Assembly: GCA_048498595.1 (NCBI GenBank) | Contig: JBEHXR010000001.1 | Location: 1 to 42,413, forward strand | Source: Bacteroidota bacterium | Lineage (GTDB): Bacteria; Bacteroidota; Bacteroidia; Chitinophagales; Chitinophagaceae | DNA length: 42,413 bases | Direction: 5' to 3' | In this document: in pieces, positions 30,911 to 40,038 of the stretch | How the letters are laid out: each line of letters starts with the position of its first letter | Numbering within the stretch: position 1 is the first letter of the stretch | Made by a program: the position numbers and the translations under genes | The notes under the pieces: model-generated | Databases searched by the model: none | What the model saw: the letters and a program-made list of their open reading frames with translations, nothing else | Told to the model about the DNA's origin: nothing

Positions 30911-31213
30911 TTAAAGTTTTGCGCCTTTAATTAAAATTGAAGTTTTTATCGATTGCTCTTTTAAATGCAGAATTTTTTTTCGCTCTTCATCCTTCATGAA
31001 ATTTTCAAAATCAGATTCGTTCTCAAATTCTACAAAGTGAACTTCGTAAGGCTTATCTATTGAATGTTCAATAAAAGAATTTTCTGTTGGTCTTATGCGC
31101 AGTAATAACTTGCCGTTATATTTTGAGATTAATGGAATCGCAATATCTTCAAAAGAATGAAACACTTCTTCCTGCCCTTCTTTTATGTAAATGAGTTGAG
31201 TGAAGTAAAGCAT
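30911..31213 (-). CDS. DUF1330-like small alpha/beta protein
   Basis: KYNGKLL, VEFE..F..F..D.ER pattern; 8 bp downstream of the TauE gene. Confidence 0.65.
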   Translation of the reverse strand: MLYFTQLIYIKEGQEEVFHSFEDIAIPLISKYNGKLLLRIRPTENSFIEHSIDKPYEVHFVEFENESDFENFMKDEERKKILHLKEQSIKTSILIKGAKL

Positions 31214-31221
31214 GCTCTAAA

Positions 31222-32010
31222 TTACCGTAACCAAATTTCTTTTACAATAATATAAATACCCATTGCTAAAACAAACCAGCCGAAACCTGTTTTCAATTTT
31301 GCACCATTAATTCTTTTGCCCAACATTCCTCCAACAAAAACACCGGCAATTGCAATAAATGAAACGATAAATAAAAATGACCAGTCTATTTTAAAATGAC
31401 CTGTATCACCAATAAAACCAGCGAGTGAGTTTAATGCAATAATTAGAAGTGATGTACCGATTGCTTTTTTCATGGGCAAATGCAACAGCAACACTAATGC
31501 AGGTATTAAAAGAAAACCACCGCCTGCGCCAAGAAATCCTGTAACCAAACCAATGCTAACACCATATAAAATTAGTTTACCAAGGTTTGTTTTCTTTTCT
31601 TCATCAACAGTAATTGTGTGTTTGCTTCTTATCATGCTGATAGAGGCAACTAACATCAGCAAAGCAAATAACACCATCGTAAGAATTGAAAAATGCATGA
31701 TGATATTTCCAACATGAATATCTTCAGGTATGCGCGGAATAATAATTTTTCTTGTGATAAAAACAGTAATGATAGATGTAACGCCAAACAACAAAGCAGT
31801 TTTAAAATCAACCAAACCTGCGCGCCAGCTATTAAATGAACCAATTAAACTGGTGGAACCAACAACGAACAGAGAATAAGACGTAGCAAGAATCGGGGAA
31901 ACGCCAAACAAATAAACTAAAACAGGAACGGTAAGTATGGAGCCGCCGCCGCCAATTAAGCCTAATGAAACGCCAATAAATAATGCTGCGATGTAGCCTG
32001 CTATTTGCAT
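31222..32010 (-). CDS. TauE/SafE (TSUP) sulfite/thiosulfate exporter
   Basis: Two repeats GLIGGGGSIL and GFLGAGGGFL; AIGTSL; about 8 TM helices. Confidence 0.9.
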   Translation of the reverse strand: MQIAGYIAALFIGVSLGLIGGGGSILTVPVLVYLFGVSPILATSYSLFVVGSTSLIGSFNSWRAGLVDFKTALLFGVTSIITVFITRKIIIPRIPEDIHVGNIIMHFSILTMVLFALLMLVASISMIRSKHTITVDEEKKTNLGKLILYGVSIGLVTGFLGAGGGFLLIPALVLLLHLPMKKAIGTSLLIIALNSLAGFIGDTGHFKIDWSFLFIVSFIAIAGVFVGGMLGKRINGAKLKTGFGWFVLAMGIYIIVKEIWLR

Positions 32011-32014
32011 GTTG

Positions 32015-32059
32015 CAAAATTGTTTTTATGTTTCGGCTTTAAATGTGATGTTCGTCACA
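32015..32059 (-). promoter_or_regulatory. Crp/Fnr box plus -7 element of the tauE promoter
   Basis: Minus strand TGTGA-cgaaca-TCACA (32059-32044), 21 bp spacer, CAATTTTG (32022-32015), 4 nt, ATG. Confidence 0.75.
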
Positions 32060-32699
32060 CAGCAACATTTACTTCTCCCTGCCATTCAATAGAATTGCGA
32101 TGCAGGATAAGGAAATGTTTGGCTTCCATCTTTTTTAATAAGCGGCTGATTACTTCACGCGAAGAATTTAAATCATTTGCAATTTCCTGGTGTGTAAGCT
32201 TAAGGTTTGTTCCAAATTGTGCTACTTGTCTTTTCAAATAAAATTCAAGCCGCTCATCCATGCTTGAAAATGCGATGGCATCAATGGTTCTCAGCAATTC
32301 TTCAAAACGGTTGCGATAAGAAGTGATTACAAACTGGTACCAGCTTTTATATGTCTGCATCCATTTATCCATATATTCAAGCGGTATGCTTAACACAACA
32401 ACATTGGTTAATGCTTTTGCCAACACTTCGCTTGTTTGATGTTTCATTGAGCAAACCAGCGATAATGAACACGCCTGTCCTGCCTGCAGGTTATAAATAA
32501 AAAATTCGTTGCCTTCATCATCTTCGCGATACAACTTTACAAACCCTTCCAGAATTAACATTGTTGAACGGATGGTTTGACCAACGCGTAATAATGTTTC
32601 GCCCGCTTTTACTTTTTTTATATCACCATGCTCCAGCAGCTCTTCATATAATTCGTTTTCAAGACCAGGAAAAAGTTGCTGCAGTGATTGTTTATTCAT
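32055..32699 (-). CDS. Crp/Fnr-family transcriptional regulator
   Basis: cNMP-like domain (ILEGFVKLYREDDEG) and HTH THQEIANDLNSSREVISRLLK. Confidence 0.93.
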   Translation of the reverse strand: MNKQSLQQLFPGLENELYEELLEHGDIKKVKAGETLLRVGQTIRSTMLILEGFVKLYREDDEGNEFFIYNLQAGQACSLSLVCSMKHQTSEVLAKALTNVVVLSIPLEYMDKWMQTYKSWYQFVITSYRNRFEELLRTIDAIAFSSMDERLEFYLKRQVAQFGTNLKLTHQEIANDLNSSREVISRLLKKMEAKHFLILHRNSIEWQGEVNVAV

Positions 32700-32715
32700 G
32701 TAATGAAAATTATTT

Positions 32716-32744
32716 CAAAGTTATACACTCAAAGGCAACACAAA
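32716..32744 (-). promoter_or_regulatory. Consensus Bacteroidota promoter of the Crp/Fnr gene
   Basis: Minus strand TTTG (32744-32741), 17 bp spacer, perfect TAACTTTG (32723-32716). Confidence 0.6.
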
Positions 32745-32769
32745 TACAATAATAAGATTGGTTGATTAT

Positions 32770-33047
32770 TTACATTTTGCCTTGTAAAATTTTATGCCAA
32801 TACAACCATGGTAATACATGTCGCTTTAATTGATACATGCTCCATCTTTCTTTGCTTTGATCAAATGGAAATGTTTCTGTTGGCTTATTGTTGTAATCAA
32901 ATTCGCACAATACAAGTTTACCATAACCTGTAACAACAGGGCAGCTTGTATAGCCATTGTAAGAGGCTTTAAGTTTTTCACCTTTTATAAGTGATAATAA
33001 ATTTTCAACTAACACAGGCGCTTATTGCGAATTGCTGCATATAGCAT
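32770..33047 (-). pseudogene. sqr: Remnant of sulfide:quinone oxidoreductase (C-terminal ~90 codons)
   Basis: YNGYTSCPVVTGYGKLVLCEFDY..PFDQSKERWSMY.LK..LPWLYW matches the SQR C-terminus. Upstream GCA GCA ATT CGC AA TAA GCG CCT GTG is a decayed AAIRKQAPV. The N-terminal FAD-binding domain is absent. Confidence 0.8.
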
Positions 33048-33064
33048 AAAAATATTTTATGCTA
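33042..33064. repeat. Perfect 10-bp inverted repeat at the sqr break point
   Basis: TAGCATAAAA-ata-TTTTATGCTA. Confidence 0.7.
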
Positions 33065-33106
33065 ACCTACTTTTGATCATCAATTTGTATGGTAACTAAA
33101 ATCACA
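33062..33106 (-). promoter_or_regulatory. Crp/Fnr box plus -7 element of the sqr-remnant promoter
   Basis: Minus strand TGTGA-ttttag-TTACC (33106-33091), 21 bp spacer, TAGGTTAG (33069-33062). Confidence 0.62.
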
Positions 33107-33189
33107 AGCGCAGGAAATTTAAATCATGCTTTTAGAAGAATTATGAAGTAAGAATTACAGATATGTAAGCGAAAACTTTTATGAAGGAG

Positions 33190-33654
33190 TTACGGCTTTA
33201 CAACGCCCCAGCCTTGCGCCTGGCGAATAATAAGCTCTCCATTCGCACTTGGAACAACGCCAATAAAATTGTAAATGCTATCGCGGCTAATTTTTCTTTC
33301 GCGCAACGTGTTGTTGCATTGTGCAACAATTACTCCCTGTTCAACCAACGACTTTAACTGATCTCCATATTTACTGTCTTTGAAATAAGCATCGGTGCCG
33401 CCGGCAAAAGCAATTAATTCAATATGCACCTTACCTTTTAATCTTTCATCGTTTAATGCGTTTTGAATATTTCTTAAAGCCTTTTCAATAACTTTTGGAT
33501 CATTATTGTCTAACTGGTAAATGGCATAATAATCTTTTTTATCTGCAACAGCGCCTGTAAAATTTCGATTCTTGTTTAACAGATCATCATTGGTTTGTGC
33601 ATGCACTGAAGAAAAAATAATACTTGTAAAAAGAAGGGCAAATAACTTTTTCAT
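33190..33654 (-). CDS. Exported DsrE/DsrF-like protein
   Basis: Signal peptide ending in VHAQ; LRNIQNAL, IELIAFAGG, conserved-Cys segment VAQCNNTL and VVPSANGELI..QAQGW..VKP. Confidence 0.78.
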   Translation of the reverse strand: MKKLFALLFTSIIFSSVHAQTNDDLLNKNRNFTGAVADKKDYYAIYQLDNNDPKVIEKALRNIQNALNDERLKGKVHIELIAFAGGTDAYFKDSKYGDQLKSLVEQGVIVAQCNNTLRERKISRDSIYNFIGVVPSANGELIIRQAQGWGVVKP

Positions 33655-33656
33655 AT

Positions 33657-34652
33657 TTATTGATTTTGTTTTTGAGCATTTTTAATTGAAAGAAATGGCC
33701 CGTATTTATGTTGTGTTTCTGAAAACGAATCTGCGTATGGGCCAAAAGGAAAATCAATGGGCTTTTTAAAAATATTTTTCCAATCATTACTTTGATCTTT
33801 ATGTGGGCGGGGTTGGCTGTTAACAAATGCAGCCACATTCCACGCTTCTTCATCTGAAAGTTTTGGATGATGATAATCTGTTCCGAAAGGCATATTGTTT
33901 TTTACAAATGACGCAAAAGTGCTTATGCGATATAACCCTGCACCATCATTGTAACTGTTATCTCCCCATAAAGGCGGGTAAACATATTCGTTTCCATCTG
34001 TATTTAACTTGCCTTGTCCATCGTTTCCATGACATGGAGTGCAATTGTTTATAAAAACTGTTTTGCCCTTTTCAACGCTTGCCGCAGTATTCATGTATTG
34101 CAATTTCATATCTGTTGTGCCGCCACGTACATCACCTTTCGGAACACTTTTATCCAGCCATTGTATGTATGCATAAATCGCCTGCATTTCTTTTGATGTT
34201 GTGTCTAATGCTTTTCCATTCAGGCTTCGTTCAAAACAATCATTCACTCTTTCATATATTGTTTGTATGGTGTTACTGCGTGCTTTGTATTGAGGATAAG
34301 TGGCAAAGGTTTTCCCAAAATTTAGCGCGTAAGGCAGCATGCCGCCATCTAAATGACAATTCTGGCAATTCATTCCATTACTTATATGCGCAACAATTCC
34401 TTTTGGCCCGAGATAAACTGATGTGTGAGCAATCAACGCATAACCGTATGAAATTAATTTACCGCTGTCTGTATAATATGGAATTTGATATATGCCCGGT
34501 CCGCGCCAAACAGTATCTGCAGGTTCCGACTGTAAATAAGATTGAAATTTTTTTTCTGCTGTTACAGAAGTTTTATGCATACTAATAACGCCATTGATTA
34601 CAACAATAGCAATAACCAGAAGTAGTATTATGAGAATCCAGTTTGATTTCAT
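33657..34652 (-). CDS. tsdA: Diheme c-type cytochrome, TsdA-like thiosulfate dehydrogenase/tetrathionate reductase
   Basis: Two CxxCH motifs (CQNCH, CTPCH), ERVNDCFERSLNG with the active-site Cys, YPPLWG..SYNDGAG and KNNMP (heme-2 Met). N-terminal anchor; start at ATG 34652. Confidence 0.78.
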   Translation of the reverse strand: MKSNWILIILLLVIAIVVINGVISMHKTSVTAEKKFQSYLQSEPADTVWRGPGIYQIPYYTDSGKLISYGYALIAHTSVYLGPKGIVAHISNGMNCQNCHLDGGMLPYALNFGKTFATYPQYKARSNTIQTIYERVNDCFERSLNGKALDTTSKEMQAIYAYIQWLDKSVPKGDVRGGTTDMKLQYMNTAASVEKGKTVFINNCTPCHGNDGQGKLNTDGNEYVYPPLWGDNSYNDGAGLYRISTFASFVKNNMPFGTDYHHPKLSDEEAWNVAAFVNSQPRPHKDQSNDWKNIFKKPIDFPFGPYADSFSETQHKYGPFLSIKNAQKQNQ

Positions 34653-34702
34653 TTTAAACCTGCATAACAAATAATCTTATTTTAAGGTAGCATTTTCGCT
34701 GA

Positions 34703-35290
34703 TCATTCTTTAACCAAATCCTGTATTTGTTTTAAAAAAGATTGAGCATCATAGTTCGCAATACCTTCATGATGCAATCTTATTCTTCCTTGTTTGTCGA
34801 TGATAAGCGTAGTTGGTAACGAACCTTTAAAAATATCATCCGGCACTTCTTCTCCACGAATGTATAAAGGAATAGTGTATTGACTTTTTCTTAGGAAATC
34901 TTTCGCCATTTCAAGATCGTCATCTTCATTTATCGTAAGAAAAAAAATATTCTTATTGTTTTTGTATTGATTGTAAAATTTGCCAATCGCAGGCAGCTCC
35001 GCTCTACATGGCGGGCACCAGGTTGCCCAAAAATTTACAAACACAACTTTTCCTTTTAATGATGATGTATTGAACTTATTTCCGTGTGCATCATAAAAAC
35101 TAAAAGCGGGTGCATCTTTAAGATCGTTATTATTTTTTTCAATTGAAGTGGAATTAAAAACTCCTATAGAAATAAACTGTTTTAATACCCATGCTTTTGC
35201 ATTGTTGTTAAATAAGAAAACTAATATCAATGCAACAAAAAGATAATTGCTCCAATTTGTTTTAAACCATTCGTTGCTAAACCATTTCAT
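34703..35290 (-). CDS. TlpA-family membrane-anchored thiol:disulfide reductase
   Basis: N-terminal TM helix, VNFWATWCPPCRAE and LPTTLIIDKQG. Confidence 0.9.
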   Translation of the reverse strand: MKWFSNEWFKTNWSNYLFVALILVFLFNNNAKAWVLKQFISIGVFNSTSIEKNNNDLKDAPAFSFYDAHGNKFNTSSLKGKVVFVNFWATWCPPCRAELPAIGKFYNQYKNNKNIFFLTINEDDDLEMAKDFLRKSQYTIPLYIRGEEVPDDIFKGSLPTTLIIDKQGRIRLHHEGIANYDAQSFLKQIQDLVKE

Positions 35291-35398
35291 GTGTATTGAT
35301 GTTCGTTTGTAAAATTAGTACAGCATTTATCTATATGTGCATAATACAGCTCATACAAAAAAATTTGCACAAATCTAATTAGCAATATCAAGGCGTTA

Positions 35399-35443
35399 AG
35401 TGATGTATGTCACCCTTAAAAATAGCAGTGATGGCGAGCTTTG
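35399..35443 (+). promoter_or_regulatory. Crp/Fnr box plus -7 element of the DUF2892 promoter
   Basis: AGTGA-tgtatg-TCACC (35399-35414), 21 bp spacer, GAGCTTTG (35436-35443). Confidence 0.65.
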
Positions 35444-35457
35444 GGCAAAACATTATT

Positions 35458-35679
35458 ATGAAAAAGAATATGGGCGCAGCAGATCGCATTTTGCGCATTC
35501 TAATAGCGATTGTTATCGGGATTCTTTATTTTACACATGTTGTAACAGGCACACTGGGTATTGTTCTAATGGTGATTGCCGCAATTTTTTTGCTTACAAG
35601 TATTATAAGCGTTTGTCCTTTGTATAGCATGCTTGGCATCAGCACTTGTCCGCGCAAGCAGCGTAATAAAACTGTTTAA
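35458..35679 (+). CDS. DUF2892 (YgaP-like) small membrane protein
   Basis: MKKNMG.ADRILR, two TM helices and the CPLY..LGISTC signature; start re-assigned to ATG 35458. Confidence 0.88.
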   Translation: MKKNMGAADRILRILIAIVIGILYFTHVVTGTLGIVLMVIAAIFLLTSIISVCPLYSMLGISTCPRKQRNKTV

Positions 35680-35695
35680 AGCTATCGCTATATTA

Positions 35696-35731
35696 AAAAA
35701 AGAAGGCAGTCTAATTAAAGACTGCCTTTCT
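35696..35731. terminator. Terminator between the convergent DUF2892 and rhodanese genes (stronger on the minus strand)
   Basis: AAGGCAGTCT-aattaa-AGACTGCCTT (35703-35728) with an A-run on the left and a pyrimidine run on the right. Confidence 0.8.
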
Positions 35732-35749
35732 CTACACAACATCACCTTA

Positions 35750-36058
35750 TCAAACTGCCTCTTTTAAATTTTGCCAGGCACCACCGTTGCATGCATCTAT
35801 TCCGGCAGCTACAAGCATGTTTTTCGCTGTCATACTTCTTGCGCCACTGCGGCAAACAGTAATTATTTTTTTATTCAGCTTTTTTAGTTCGGCAATCTTT
35901 GATGATAATGTATCAAGCGGAATATTTCTTGAACCGGGAAGATGACCGCTTTTAAATTCGTGCGGTGTGCGTACATCAACAACCAATGCACCTTCATCAA
36001 TGATCGCTTTCATGTTGTGTGATGGTTTTTCAAATAATGATTTAAGTTTTTCAAACAT
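35750..36058 (-). CDS. Single-domain rhodanese (sulfurtransferase)
   Basis: VDVRTPHEFKSGHLPGS.NIPL and active loop CRSGARS. Confidence 0.92.
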   Translation of the reverse strand: MFEKLKSLFEKPSHNMKAIIDEGALVVDVRTPHEFKSGHLPGSRNIPLDTLSSKIAELKKLNKKIITVCRSGARSMTAKNMLVAAGIDACNGGAWQNLKEAV

Positions 36059-36087
36059 ATAATTGTATTTATTTTTTATAAAAAGAT

Positions 36088-37503
36088 TTATAACATGGTT
36101 GTGGGGCGAACATAATCGGTAACTGCAAACCTGCCGCTTTCTTTTAAGGCTTTAAATCCGCCCTGCACTTCAACTATTTTATCGTAACCTCTTGCACGCA
36201 GGATAGAAGTAAAAATCATTGAACGATAACCACCGGCACAATGCACATAATAAGTTTTGTTTTTATCAATATGTGCCATGTTATCATTAATAAAATCAAG
36301 CGGTTCATTTTCTGCATCAGCAATGTGCTCACTGTCGTACTCACTTTTTTTGCGCACATCAAGTATGTTCACCTGTTTTGCTTTCATCACATCTGCAAGC
36401 TCATTTGCAGTAATACTTTTTATGGCATCTGTTTCTTTGCCTGCATTCTTCCATGCATTAAAACCGCCTTTCAAAAAGCCAATCGTATTATCATAACCTA
36501 CACGCGCCAATCTTGTAATTACTTCTTCTTCTTTGCCTTCATCCGTTACTAATAAAATCGGTTGTTTAATATCCGGAATCAATGTGCCAACCCACGGCGC
36601 AAAAGTTCCGTCGATACCAATGTTAACTGAATTTGGAATGAAACCTTTTGCGAATGTTTGCGCATCTCTTGTATCTAATATCAATGCATTTGTTTCGTTA
36701 GCGGCTGCTTCAAATGCTTCAGCGCTTAATGCATGTTCACCACGCTCTAACACTTTATCAATACTTTCATAACCATGAATGTTCATGATAACATTTAATG
36801 GAAAATAGGATGGCGGCTTTACTAAGCCGGTTGTTACAGCTTCAATAAATTCTTCTTTGCTCATTGGCTGCAAAGCATAATTTGTTTTTTTCTGATGACC
36901 TAACGTATCCGTTGTTTCCTTGCTCATATTCTTACCGCAAGCACTTCCTGCGCCATGTGCAGGATAAACAATAATGTCATCATTCAATGGCAAAATTTTA
37001 TTGTGTAATGATTCATATAAATAACCTGCAAGCTTATCTTCTGTTAATTCAGCTTTTACTTTTTGTGCAAGATCGGGGCGACCTACATCTCCAATAAACA
37101 ATGTATCTCCTGAAAATAATCCAACCTCTTTACCTTCTTCATTTTTTAAAAGATAACAAGAACTTTCCATTGTATGACCCGGCGTGTGCAATACTTTAAT
37201 TACAAGTTTGCCAAGCTTAAATGTTTGTCCGTCTTCAGCTACAATAGCTTTAAAACCTGGTTTTGCTGTTGGACCATAAACAATTTGCGCACCCGTTTTT
37301 TTACTCAAATCCAAATGACCGCTAACAAAGTCGGCATGAAAATGTGTTTCAAAAACATACTTTATTGTTGCATTGTTTTGTTTAGCTTTTTTAATGTAAG
37401 GTTCTACTTCGCGCAGCGGGTCAATCACTGCAGCTTCACCTTCATTTTCTATATAATAAGCGCCTTGTGCAAGGCAGCCCGTATAAATCTGTTCAAGAAT
37501 CAT
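36088..37503 (-). CDS. MBL-fold persulfide dioxygenase fused to two rhodanese domains (CstB-like)
   Basis: ETHFHADFVSGH, HTPGHT, SGDTLF.GDVGRPDL, PAHGAGSACGK, a pseudo-rhodanese domain and a C-terminal rhodanese HCAGGYRS; start at ATG 37503. Confidence 0.85.
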   Translation of the reverse strand: MILEQIYTGCLAQGAYYIENEGEAAVIDPLREVEPYIKKAKQNNATIKYVFETHFHADFVSGHLDLSKKTGAQIVYGPTAKPGFKAIVAEDGQTFKLGKLVIKVLHTPGHTMESSCYLLKNEEGKEVGLFSGDTLFIGDVGRPDLAQKVKAELTEDKLAGYLYESLHNKILPLNDDIIVYPAHGAGSACGKNMSKETTDTLGHQKKTNYALQPMSKEEFIEAVTTGLVKPPSYFPLNVIMNIHGYESIDKVLERGEHALSAEAFEAAANETNALILDTRDAQTFAKGFIPNSVNIGIDGTFAPWVGTLIPDIKQPILLVTDEGKEEEVITRLARVGYDNTIGFLKGGFNAWKNAGKETDAIKSITANELADVMKAKQVNILDVRKKSEYDSEHIADAENEPLDFINDNMAHIDKNKTYYVHCAGGYRSMIFTSILRARGYDKIVEVQGGFKALKESGRFAVTDYVRPTTML

Positions 37504-37523
37504 AACAATAAAATTTAATGATG

Positions 37524-37568
37524 TAAAATTAAAACAGTGCAACCGCTTAAAATGTGACAGAAATCACA
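37524..37568 (-). promoter_or_regulatory. Crp/Fnr box plus -7 element of the dioxygenase-rhodanese promoter
   Basis: Minus strand TGTGA-tttctg-TCACA (37568-37553), 21 bp spacer, TAATTTTA (37531-37524). Confidence 0.75.
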
Positions 37569-37605
37569 TAGACTGTTTTTCTGGATTAAGTTTTTGAAGA
37601 AACGA

Positions 37606-40038
37606 TTATTCTATCTCTTTTTCAATATGTGTAAGCCTGCCGTCTGTACTAACGCCTTCTACTATTACGCGAAAACTTGATGTAATATCATTATTATAAA
37701 AGTGGATGCGCACAGTATGGTTTTCGTTGTTGGTTAAAATCATCGGATTCCAGTAAAGCGTGGTTCTTAAATCCTGCTCATCATTACGACTGTCAAAACT
37801 TGCGTAGTTGGGTGAGTAAAATTCTTTTGGCGCGGTATAACCAATTAATATTTTATAAGGAAGTCCTTTGCTTTGTGTTTGTACAACGTCGCCACCTTTT
37901 CGGGTATATACAGCAATGGCACCATTTGCTCCGCCACCACTGGATCCAAAGAAAGGCGGTCTAAATACTTTTACATAAGCAACATCAGCCATAGTCATAC
38001 TGGTAAGCTGATCTGCAGTTACCGGCATTTCATCTAAATAAAAATCAGGAGTACCGCCACGCCATGATACAGAAGGGGTAGATGTTGTACCGGACGGAAT
38101 TGAAATGGTTAATCCTGCAACACGACTTTGCAAATAATTAAAAACGTTTGTTGCACCTTTACTAAAAGGATCATTTAATACATCGAACTGGTATGCATCG
38201 CTGCCGCTAAAAAGTGGCGATGCATATTTTTCATCTAAAACCTGCAGCGGACTTTTTGCTTTTGTTGTTACCGTAACATCCTGCAAAGTTGTTCCTTGTT
38301 GTAACTTAAATAACCTCAGTTGTTCTTCAGCCAATCGTCGCCGGTAATTTTCAGTTGCTGTATCAACAAAAGAAATTGCATTTATTGTATCGCTACCAGA
38401 TGTTTTTATTGCAGGCATACTTGAATTAAATGTTACCGCTGCGGTGCTTGACAACCCTGCATTTCCGGCAACCTTGTAAAAGGCTTTTGTAGTATCAATT
38501 AATACATCATTAGGTAAAGCAAAAGAAGCATCCGCATTTATTAACGCCTGTTCTACTTTGCGTGACGTGTCTTTTTTATTGTCGAGCATTAATATTATAA
38601 ATGCGCCTTGCCGTAAATCTGATTCAGATGCGCCATAAACCTTGCCTGAAAATTTTAAGTAATCTGTATCGTTTTGATATTTTATGGCAGGAAATTTATT
38701 GTGCACAACATCTTGCCAGTTTATGCGGCGCCAGCCGTTGGTGAGCATTACAAGATCAAGTTGCTGCTGCAGGGTATCGCTATTGTTTTTAAAATAATAT
38801 GAGGGATTATAAATTGATCCTTTAAGATCTGCAGTTAACAATAACCTCGATATTATATCATCGCTGCTATCTATTCCAATTCCGGCATCTGTTACAGCAA
38901 CAGAAAGATTTGAAATAACTGTATCCGGTACGCTAATTACAAGTGTATTCGATTTTCTTTTTCCTAATCCTAATTCTGAAAAGCCTACTTCAGGATCAAA
39001 ATGATAATCATCATTATTAATAAAAGTAACACGCTCTGCAAATGCAATCCAGTTTGAATCGAAAAGTGTTATTTGTAAAATGCCGGATGGCAAAGCTGCT
39101 ACAGGTATTGAACCGCCGGTAACAAAATTATCCTGCAGGTTGGCTGCAGCAAAATATACAAGATGCTGGTTCATGGTTGCAGCTATGTATATTTTTTTAA
39201 AATTATCAGTTGAATTTTCAGAACGCTGAATTTTAAACCCACGTGTTTGATCCTGCACTGTTATTGCTAAAGTTGCACCTGATTCTTTTGCAGCCGGCAA
39301 GTTTGTTTGATAATTGTTATTCTGCGCATCTTTCCATTTTGCTGTATACGTTTCACCTGTTTTTGGCGTAAGCGCAAAAGAACCCATTCCATCATGCAGT
39401 GATGAAAATGTTGCAACCTGTTCTCCGCTTTTATTCACAACAGTACCATGAACAGCGTCCGGTCTTCCATCGGCGCCCACTGCCTTAAATGCAATTTTGC
39501 TTTCAATGCTGTTAATCCAATCACCACCTTCCGGCAAAAATTTAATAGAAGCTTTTGCCGCAGTTGCAGTTGTTTTTAAAGAAGGTTTTGTTTGAACTAC
39601 AGGAATGGCTTTTCTGTATAAAAAAGAAGAATCAAAATTCAACATCCAGCGTGTATATGCTTTCACATAAACCGTTCTGTCTTTAAATTCTAATGGTAAA
39701 CTGTAATCGCCGCTGGCAGATGATTGATAAATAGCAGCCACGCAATGTTTCAGCAGCTTGCCACTTTCATCAATAAAATCTATGTATAAAGTTTTGCTGA
39801 TGTTATCTGTATTTGCGCCTTCCATTAAATAGGCTTTAAACCAAATGGTTTCACCCGGCGCATAAGCAGGCTTGTCATAATGCAAATAAATTTTTTCCTG
39901 CGGAAAATTATCAGCGAGTGTTGTTATGGCATCTTTTACTGAGTTTAAGTCTGGTGTTTGTGCGAACGATTGCGATGCAGCGATAACAAAAATGAAAAAG
40001 AAAAATAAACGCATAGTTTTTTCCGGCTTCATTTGCAA
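37606..40038 (-). CDS. Large exported protein with a macroglobulin-like N-terminal domain and a TonB-plug-like domain
   Basis: Signal peptide (true start may be 40014), PQEKIYLHYDKPAYAPGETIWFKAY, FLPEGG, LDLVMLTNGWRR, plug-like GANGAIAVYTRKG and DLRTTLYWNP; no beta-barrel. Confidence 0.65.
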   Translation of the reverse strand: MQMKPEKTMRLFFFFIFVIAASQSFAQTPDLNSVKDAITTLADNFPQEKIYLHYDKPAYAPGETIWFKAYLMEGANTDNISKTLYIDFIDESGKLLKHCVAAIYQSSASGDYSLPLEFKDRTVYVKAYTRWMLNFDSSFLYRKAIPVVQTKPSLKTTATAAKASIKFLPEGGDWINSIESKIAFKAVGADGRPDAVHGTVVNKSGEQVATFSSLHDGMGSFALTPKTGETYTAKWKDAQNNNYQTNLPAAKESGATLAITVQDQTRGFKIQRSENSTDNFKKIYIAATMNQHLVYFAAANLQDNFVTGGSIPVAALPSGILQITLFDSNWIAFAERVTFINNDDYHFDPEVGFSELGLGKRKSNTLVISVPDTVISNLSVAVTDAGIGIDSSDDIISRLLLTADLKGSIYNPSYYFKNNSDTLQQQLDLVMLTNGWRRINWQDVVHNKFPAIKYQNDTDYLKFSGKVYGASESDLRQGAFIILMLDNKKDTSRKVEQALINADASFALPNDVLIDTTKAFYKVAGNAGLSSTAAVTFNSSMPAIKTSGSDTINAISFVDTATENYRRRLAEEQLRLFKLQQGTTLQDVTVTTKAKSPLQVLDEKYASPLFSGSDAYQFDVLNDPFSKGATNVFNYLQSRVAGLTISIPSGTTSTPSVSWRGGTPDFYLDEMPVTADQLTSMTMADVAYVKVFRPPFFGSSGGGANGAIAVYTRKGGDVVQTQSKGLPYKILIGYTAPKEFYSPNYASFDSRNDEQDLRTTLYWNPMILTNNENHTVRIHFYNNDITSSFRVIVEGVSTDGRLTHIEKEIE

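Follow-up and report, generated by a model that had tools for sequence, protein, structure and literature searches.

Genes and predicted promoters of the sulfur locus

The window, a stretch of 42,413 nucleotides (positions 1 to 42,413 of contig JBEHXR010000001.1, assembly GCA_048498595.1) from a bacterium of the Chitinophagaceae, contains a sulfur locus in which the gene of a Crp/Fnr-family regulator lies among genes such as tauE, tsdA and a dioxygenase-rhodanese gene, and in which CRP-type boxes precede -7-like promoter octamers (Table 1). A sequence-only reading had described four promoters with a box exactly 21 bp upstream of the octamer, those of tauE, the sqr remnant, ygaP (DUF2892) and the dioxygenase, as a candidate regulon activated by this regulator. 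By direct reading of the sequence, all four boxes and their octamers were located, with spacers of 21 bp throughout. A fifth promoter, facing tlpA-tsdA-dsrE, had been overlooked, and the total is five. The statement that each octamer departs from TAnnTTTG by one base holds for the four promoters and fails for the whole set, since the fifth octamer (35377-35370) is perfect. The octamer of the regulator's own promoter, at 32723-32716, was confirmed as perfect.

The density of these elements was estimated with a loose composite rule (box with at most two mismatches, 21 bp, octamer with at most one mismatch to TAnnTTTG), by which five matches were found in 31001-38000 versus three in the 529,348 bases of contigs C2-C20 of the same genome, used as the chance background (0.04 per 7 kb). 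Two of the three perfect boxes of the whole 3.7-Mb assembly (G000, 92.65% complete) fall in this locus. The box at 35399-35414 is placed symmetrically between two divergent predicted promoters, and such two-way boxes are rare, with three others among the related loci scanned. Predicted transcription starts, taken as the fifth base after the octamer, lie near 32010, 35365, 35448 and 37519. That of tauE coincides with the A of its ATG, and the same gap of 4 nucleotides recurs at 6 of 40 tauE orthologue sites, which would fit a leaderless transcript. Contigs from two sequencing runs, aligned to the window in search of RNA evidence, were shallow, fragmentary and uninformative.

Table 1. Genes, boxes and predicted promoter elements of the sulfur locus (positions in the window)
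Feature	Position	Strand	Remarks
tauE, sulfite-exporter family	31222..32010	-	PF01925
Crp/Fnr-family regulator, 214 amino acids	32055..32699	-	Pfam cNMP_binding + HTH_Crp_2
sqr pseudogene, about the last 90 codons, fused to its promoter	32770..33050	-	NF049943 positions 308-392 of 406
DsrE-like protein	33190..33654	-	PF02635
TsdA-like dihaem cytochrome c (thiosulfate dehydrogenase family)	33657..34652	-	PF21342; PDB thiosulfate dehydrogenase, E 6e-44
TlpA/ResA-like thioredoxin-fold protein	34703..35290	-	Pfam/NCBIfam searches
YgaP-like (DUF2892) membrane protein, 73 amino acids	35458..35679	+	PF11127; start codon examined
Single-domain rhodanese	35750..36058	-	PF00581
Metallo-beta-lactamase fold with two rhodanese domains, 471 amino acids	36088..37503	-	PDB 3TP9, E 1e-68; 3R2U, E 3e-61
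tauE -7-like octamer	32015..32022	-	one mismatch to TAnnTTTG
Box 1, for tauE	32044..32059	-	perfect palindrome; shares bases with the stop codon of the regulator
-7 octamer, predicted promoter of the regulator itself	32716..32723	-	perfect; not preceded by a box at 21 bp
sqr-remnant -7-like octamer, weak	33062..33069	-	one mismatch to TAnnTTTG
Box 2, for the sqr remnant	33091..33106	-	two mismatches
-7 octamer facing tlpA-tsdA-dsrE	35370..35377	-	perfect match
Box 3, bidirectional	35399..35414	.	21 bp to a -7 on either strand
ygaP/DUF2892 -7-like octamer	35436..35443	+	one mismatch to TAnnTTTG
Dioxygenase -7-like octamer	37524..37531	-	one mismatch to TAnnTTTG
Box 4, for the dioxygenase-rhodanese operon	37553..37568	-	perfect palindrome

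Conservation of the box and the 21-bp spacer

The best 80 of 571 loci found (1.13 Mb) were used as the conservation set, and the window itself is included in its gene counts where the gene is present. The closest regulators (79-80% identical) come from metagenome-assembled genomes of Chitinophagaceae, and the locus is carried by cultured Chitinophaga, Niastella and Parafilimonas strains. The recurring genes are tauE and the dioxygenase (49 loci each), two YeeE/YedE genes (43 and 41 loci, respectively), rhodanese (32), thioredoxin (26), tsdA (20) and dsrE (15). Among 115 boxes with at most one mismatch lying within 150 bp of sulfur-locus genes, 77 had an octamer (at most one mismatch) at 21 bp, and each of the other spacers between 10 and 35 bp accounted for no more than three. 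For two-mismatch boxes at these genes the proportion was 38/69, and for boxes near other genes it was 4/15 (at most one mismatch) and 2/43 (two mismatches). A gene-blind composite scan of the same loci gave 106 sites at spacer 21 and at most four at any other spacer; in the distant set, comprising 40 regulator regions from 12 other families, the corresponding numbers were 23 and at most two, and sites at 21 bp were present in 22 of the 40 loci. By these counts, the conservation of box and spacer in orthologous loci was upheld. No p-value is given, since related genomes are not independent.

In the relatives the box has the consensus TGTGAY-N4-RTCACA, with Y/R preferred at the inner positions, and the first base of the box-linked octamer (n = 94) is most often C (53), followed by T (23), G (15) and A (3). 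The -7 octamer of Bacteroidota is placed at -12 to -5 relative to the transcription start in the part of PMC9723704 that deals with it. Given this placement and the fixed 21-bp spacer, the box is predicted to span -49 to -34 with its centre at -41.5, and the class II position calculated in the sequence-only reading follows. By comparison of sequences, the regulon is real, conserved and specific, and the adjacent Crp/Fnr protein very likely reads the boxes from the class II position.

A protein bound at -49 to -34 could also act as a repressor that blocks RNA polymerase until sulfane sulfur frees it, as CstR and SqrR do, and most known sensors of reactive sulfur species (RSS) are repressors according to the relevant sections of PMC13467558. 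Single-base spacing would be unneeded for repression, yet the 106 sites at 21 bp stand against at most four elsewhere; in addition, the boxes never overlap the -7 element and the -7 elements are mostly non-consensus. Repression at these promoters is considered highly improbable.

Distribution of the regulon in this and other genomes

Scanning of this genome with a position-weight matrix for the box and the -7 element, trained on 159 sites of relatives, gave 42 oriented boxes, of which seven had a -7 element at 21 bp, four of them in the locus and three outside it. Besides the regulator, the genome encodes two full Crp proteins, whose recognition helices, TESLIR and RVETVIR, differ from the regulator's. 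On both counts, the architecture is not distributed genome-wide under another Crp, an outcome that had been considered in the sequence-only reading.

For the survey of the family, 150 genomes (64 with the regulator and 86 without) were searched with the strict composite pattern, and the reversed pattern was used as a control. The pattern was found in 53/64 regulator genomes (129 matches) versus 18/86 regulator-less genomes (22 matches), and the control gave 14 matches in each group. A same-genus genome (G012) counted as zero by the strict pattern carries a one-mismatch box with a -7 element at 21 bp. Around matches distal to the regulator or lying in regulator-less genomes, 80 regions were fetched (from 150 listed of 157), some of which may represent one locus divided between contigs, and the gene labels of the distal regulon members were assigned by the author. 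In regulator genomes, 45 of the 67 distal oriented matches precede regulon-type genes (trx, ygaP, tolC, dioxygenase, tauE, osmC, rhodanese, sqr, cdr, trxB or similar); the remainder comprise 5 doubtful members, 10 matches before other genes and 7 before nothing. In regulator-less genomes, 8 of 19 oriented matches precede regulon-type genes and one precedes a distant homologue of the regulator. As judged by these sequence matches, the regulon is dispersed but specific.

Several distal sites were recorded in their own right. A site between universal-stress-protein-like genes (G000:C62:4287-4331, plus strand) lies beside a P-type ATPase gene, with a lipoprotein gene cluster about 350 bases downstream; such a P-type ATPase gene is divergent from the regulator in several relatives. 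On C156 (6523-6818, minus strand), an all-A box with a perfect -7 element at 21 bp precedes a 76-amino-acid membrane protein with a GCC motif; members of its family turn up repeatedly in regulon loci, and the family is matched in neither Pfam nor NCBIfam. On C86 (2817-7547, minus strand), at least six paralogues are encoded in tandem, each about 250 amino acids long and beginning with the same histidine-rich N-terminus. A TolC-family outer-membrane gene recurs in the regulon (L116, L129, L130, L139, L149, L151, L154 and L182), which may indicate that some sulfur species is removed by an efflux pump. Genes for a SoxB-like hydrolase, an OprD-like porin and TsdA stand under the same boxes in L034 (7233-8933), L045 and L134, possibly as a module for thiosulfate/tetrathionate that lacks the other Sox components.

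Co-variation of the recognition helix and the box

The sequence-only reading had noted an R-E-x3-R helix like that of E. coli CRP, and the residues concerned, R181, E182 and R186, were found in 110/110 close homologues. In the 40 distant loci the helix is of the R-E type in 14 and of the R-V type in 26, and at box position 4 the exact-core half-sites have G in 17/22 at R-E loci and A in 19/26 at R-V loci. When sites were classified as both-A, mixed or both-G, the numbers were 20/7/6 (n = 33) genome-wide in 26 R-V genomes, 9/42/15 (n = 66) in 24 distant R-E genomes, two of which were typed by genus only, and 2/27/77 (n = 106) at the R-E loci of the Chitinophagaceae. A tree of 48 proteins needs about five E/V changes, at least three of them forced by strong branches; it includes a sister pair (support 91/76) of which L251 has V and TGTAA boxes and L255 has E and TGTGA boxes. 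This shift of the box from TGTGA to TGTAA as the helix goes from R-E to R-V ties the box to this regulator. Position 181 is treated as a specificity residue in the part of PMC1274295 on HcpR2, where loss of Glu accompanies GTAAC, and, as given in a portion of PMC2677863, selection on A/T at that base yielded CRP with Val181, which loses discrimination there.

These observations bear on a reading in which the boxes are recognised by another, global Crp-family protein, with the local gene as a bystander. The box does equal the E. coli CRP consensus, the assembly is 92.65% complete, and 18/86 genomes without a close regulator contain a match. Against this stand the small number of composite sites in the genome by the matrix scan (just seven), the TESLIR and RVETVIR helices of the two other Crp proteins and the variation of the box with the helix of the local protein, and of the matches in "regulator-less" genomes eight precede regulon genes and one a distant homologue. 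A bystander role for the local gene is given hardly any credence.

The regulator protein and its candidate signal

The regulator belongs to the Crp/Fnr superfamily, with the cNMP-binding-type domain, the C-helix and the Crp helix-turn-helix all present, and its structure model (mean predicted confidence, pLDDT, 91) has matches of the CRP-family fold. The cut-offs of the named families were not reached: 56.7 versus 266 bits for CRP (PRK11753), 34.4 versus 228 for FNR (PRK11161), with two cysteines and not the four of a [4Fe-4S] cluster and a box other than the TTGAT of FNR, and 47.1 versus 244.95 for NtcA (TIGR03697). Among the best 120 of 7984 homologue matches all names were generic Crp/Fnr names, and a plasmid search returned seven records, six generically named and one unannotated. 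In a phylum survey, homologues (E <= 1e-30) were found in 111/350 genomes; one large family (f20) had none in 76/76 genomes searched, and another (f5) had one in 26/26.

The two cysteines of the protein, C77 and C83, are its only ones. C77 is kept in 109/110 close and 43/43 diverse homologues, C83 in 107/110 and 42/43, respectively, and C77 is one of only nine columns that do not vary across 43 sequences with identities as low as 30%. In the alignment to 4BH9, C77 falls at the start of the cyclic AMP cassette of CRP, of which G71-E72 and R82 are missing here. The content of the regulon and these conserved cysteines with their position suggest that sulfane sulfur is probably the signal. Predicted sites were found at the target genes by which a primary RSS sensor is recognised (dioxygenase, SQR, rhodanese, TauE and YeeE). 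In the sections of PMC13467558 on such sensors, the targets named are dioxygenase, SQR, rhodaneses, TauE, YeeE/YedE and coenzyme A (CoA)-persulfide reductase.

Two other signals were weighed. The same class II activator could sense general thiol, oxidative, electrophile or nitrosative stress through its cysteines, or oxygen through a cofactor, with the sulfur genes as part of a redox regulon; distal members such as thioredoxin (9 matches), TolC (8), OsmC (4) and TrxB would suit it, and the Crp/Fnr proteins HcpR and NssR sense nitric oxide or oxygen in the parts of PMC1274295 concerned. The core of the regulon is dioxygenase-rhodanese, TauE, YeeE/YedE, SQR, TsdA and CoA-disulfide reductase-rhodanese, which is the gene set of the RSS sensors in the sections of PMC13467558 cited above; no match to hcp (PF03063) was found in this 92.65% complete genome, the FNR cysteine cluster is missing, and respiratory or catalase genes are not among the labelled matches. 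A general stress signal is rated as unlikely. Still more doubtful is a non-covalent sulfur ligand (thiosulfate, sulfite, glutathione persulfide or CoA) held in the pocket, with the cysteines lining the site unmodified. It would accommodate a clade that dispenses with C83 and still lies beside dioxygenase, tauE, yeeE or rhodanese genes, and glutathione is allosteric on PrfA and Vfr in the part of PMC7315123 that treats them; the invariance of C77 argues against it, as does the use of cysteine pairs by the known primary RSS sensors (PMC13467558, same sections).

Other features of the locus

The gene labelled dioxygenase has, by its domain and structure-database matches, the architecture of a CstB-type persulfide dioxygenase; PDB 3R2U is presumably S. 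aureus CstB. A second dioxygenase-rhodanese gene, apparently split (G000:C383:2184-3310 and C83:2-808) and without a box, lies directly after an ArsR-like gene with one C-terminal cysteine. Sorting the dioxygenases by presence or absence of a box gave no information, because many of them are internal to operons.

In the sqr region (32770-33106, minus strand), about 300 N-terminal codons are gone and the remaining 90 or so begin out of frame. Comparison with intact sqr genes shows a deletion remnant abutting its old promoter. No further sqr fragments were found in the assembly (92.65% complete), so the step that oxidises sulfide to sulfane sulfur may be missing here. The octamer of the remnant scores 0.7 bits on the relatives-trained matrix versus a median of 8.9. 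The intact sqr gene of L003 has a box and octamer nearly identical to those of the remnant; decay of the -7 element after pseudogenisation was considered and rejected, as intact sqr genes have similarly weak octamers.

The tlpA-tsdA-dsrE block (33190-35290, minus strand) separates ygaP from the sqr promoter. In L003 a box lies between directly divergent ygaP and sqr genes, from which it follows that the block was gained here or lost in L003. Restriction endonuclease-like and retron PtuA/HNH-like genes, all below family cut-offs, lie between sqr and the regulator in L003 (4830-7909).

Proposed mechanism and its strength

Crp proteins are dimers, and a dimer of the regulator would bind TGTGAY-N4-RTCACA through R181, E182 and R186. 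The bound site would abut the -33 region and the protein would contact RNA polymerase as at class II CRP/FNR promoters, a contact that could make up for the weak -7 element and the missing -33 element; box 3 alone would drive the divergent ygaP and tlpA-tsdA-dsrE promoters. As the least certain part of the chain, sulfide would be oxidised to persulfide or polysulfide, which would persulfidate C77 or cross-link C77 and C83 in place of cyclic AMP binding, and the induced dioxygenase, rhodaneses, TauE, YeeE, thioredoxin and TsdA would then clear the signal. The regulon and the class II activator are put forward with high confidence. For the entire chain, in which the adjacent Crp/Fnr protein would activate the five sulfur-detoxification promoters and be switched by sulfane sulfur, our confidence is slightly better than even.

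Several observations weigh against this mechanism. The counts come from related genomes and are non-independent by kinship; 18 of the 40 distant loci have no site under the rule used; and in the test for a -33 element, which has little power, TTG occurred at spacer 17-20 in 4/94 box-linked versus 17/132 control promoters. Outside the locus, the composite sites on C262 and C86 have no gene close downstream and that on C62 is about 350 bases from a gene. The trx, trxB, osmC, prx and RND tolC members would also fit general thiol stress, and tauE homologues (E <= 1e-40) occur in 30/86 regulator-less genomes, although some of these have weaker homologues beside tauE. The link of helix and box is not strict: the distant R-E genomes mostly have hybrid boxes (42/66), L253 combines R-V with a TGTGA box, G466 combines R-E with two all-A sites, the C156 member of this very genome has an all-A box, and the counts carry no control for base composition or paralogues. 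Finally, a clade with a C-[IV]-M-S-F motif, mostly outside the 43-sequence alignment, lacks C83, and the conserved cysteine may be structural.

It is likely that the two-cysteine Crp-type protein docks at the palindromes, and it would then represent an undescribed kind of reactive-sulfur switch. In its widest form, on which we are evenly divided, the proposal is that dedicated persulfide sensors include a fourth structural class, to which the regulator would belong as an activator with the CRP fold and, in place of the cyclic AMP pocket, a reactive cysteine or C-x5-C pair; that in aerobic Bacteroidota it would be the main regulator for sulfide and sulfane sulfur, Firmicutes having relatives of it; and that its sites would define, for the first time, a class II geometry for the Bacteroidota -7/-33 sigma factor, with one site serving two divergent promoters in some cases. 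If so, sulfide detoxification in heterotrophs abundant in soil, fresh water and the sea would have a named regulator, operator and regulon, the Crp/Fnr family would gain a branch of covalent sensors, and the unusual Bacteroidota sigma factor would have a precise activator-promoter geometry, usable as an inducible part.

Comparison with known systems

No description of this regulator was found in the literature searched, a scope that excluded subscription journals and databases such as RegPrecise, and Bacteroidota are not mentioned in the searched parts of the reviews PMC13467558 and PMC9774590.

The best PDB match of the protein is 3DV8 (Eubacterium rectale eubrec_1222, a structural genomics entry), with a profile E of 4e-34 and the next match at 1e-20; it keeps the C-x5-C pair and the helix REVITR, and was deposited as a putative regulator. 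NtcA of cyanobacteria is the second-best PDB sequence match and shares the R-V helix of the R-V subtype, with GTA-N8-TAC as its box; unlike the present protein it senses 2-oxoglutarate and lacks a cysteine where C77 would align. HcpR2 (Rodionov et al. 2005, PMC1274295, in the sections on this group) is likewise a Crp/Fnr protein of Bacteroides and others, and its GTAAC-N4-GTTAC equals the box of the R-V subtype, but it has Pro (Ser/Gln) at 181 and always accompanies hcp, whereas the proteins described here have Glu or Val, no hcp was found in this genome and the targets are sulfur genes. For Chlorobaculum tepidum, Crp-type control through a CRP-like motif (CLM) was proposed for psrABC and cydAB in the same wider phylum (bioRxiv 10.1101/172254, relevant parts); there the motif has no spacer, its positions vary (57-58 or 35 bp upstream, or overlapping), the targets are others, and in those parts of that study the binding protein was not shown. 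The E. coli-like Crp of A. baumannii is persulfidated, according to part of a published account.

With E. coli CRP the regulator shares the fold, the R-E-x3-R helix, the TGTGA-N6-TCACA site and the centre at -41.5, the last as a prediction; it differs in the absence of the G71-E72/R82 cyclic AMP pocket, in its small sulfur regulon and in the Bacteroidota -7/-33 sigma factor at its promoters. The dedicated RSS sensors belong to the CsoR, ArsR and Fis families in the corresponding sections of a 2026 review (PMC13467558). CstR (CsoR family), SqrR/BigR (ArsR) and FisR (Fis, sigma-54) share with the present protein a cysteine pair and the target genes predicted for it; their folds are of the CsoR, ArsR or Fis-AAA+ type, whereas the regulator of the sulfur locus has a Crp fold and is a predicted activator at primary-sigma promoters.

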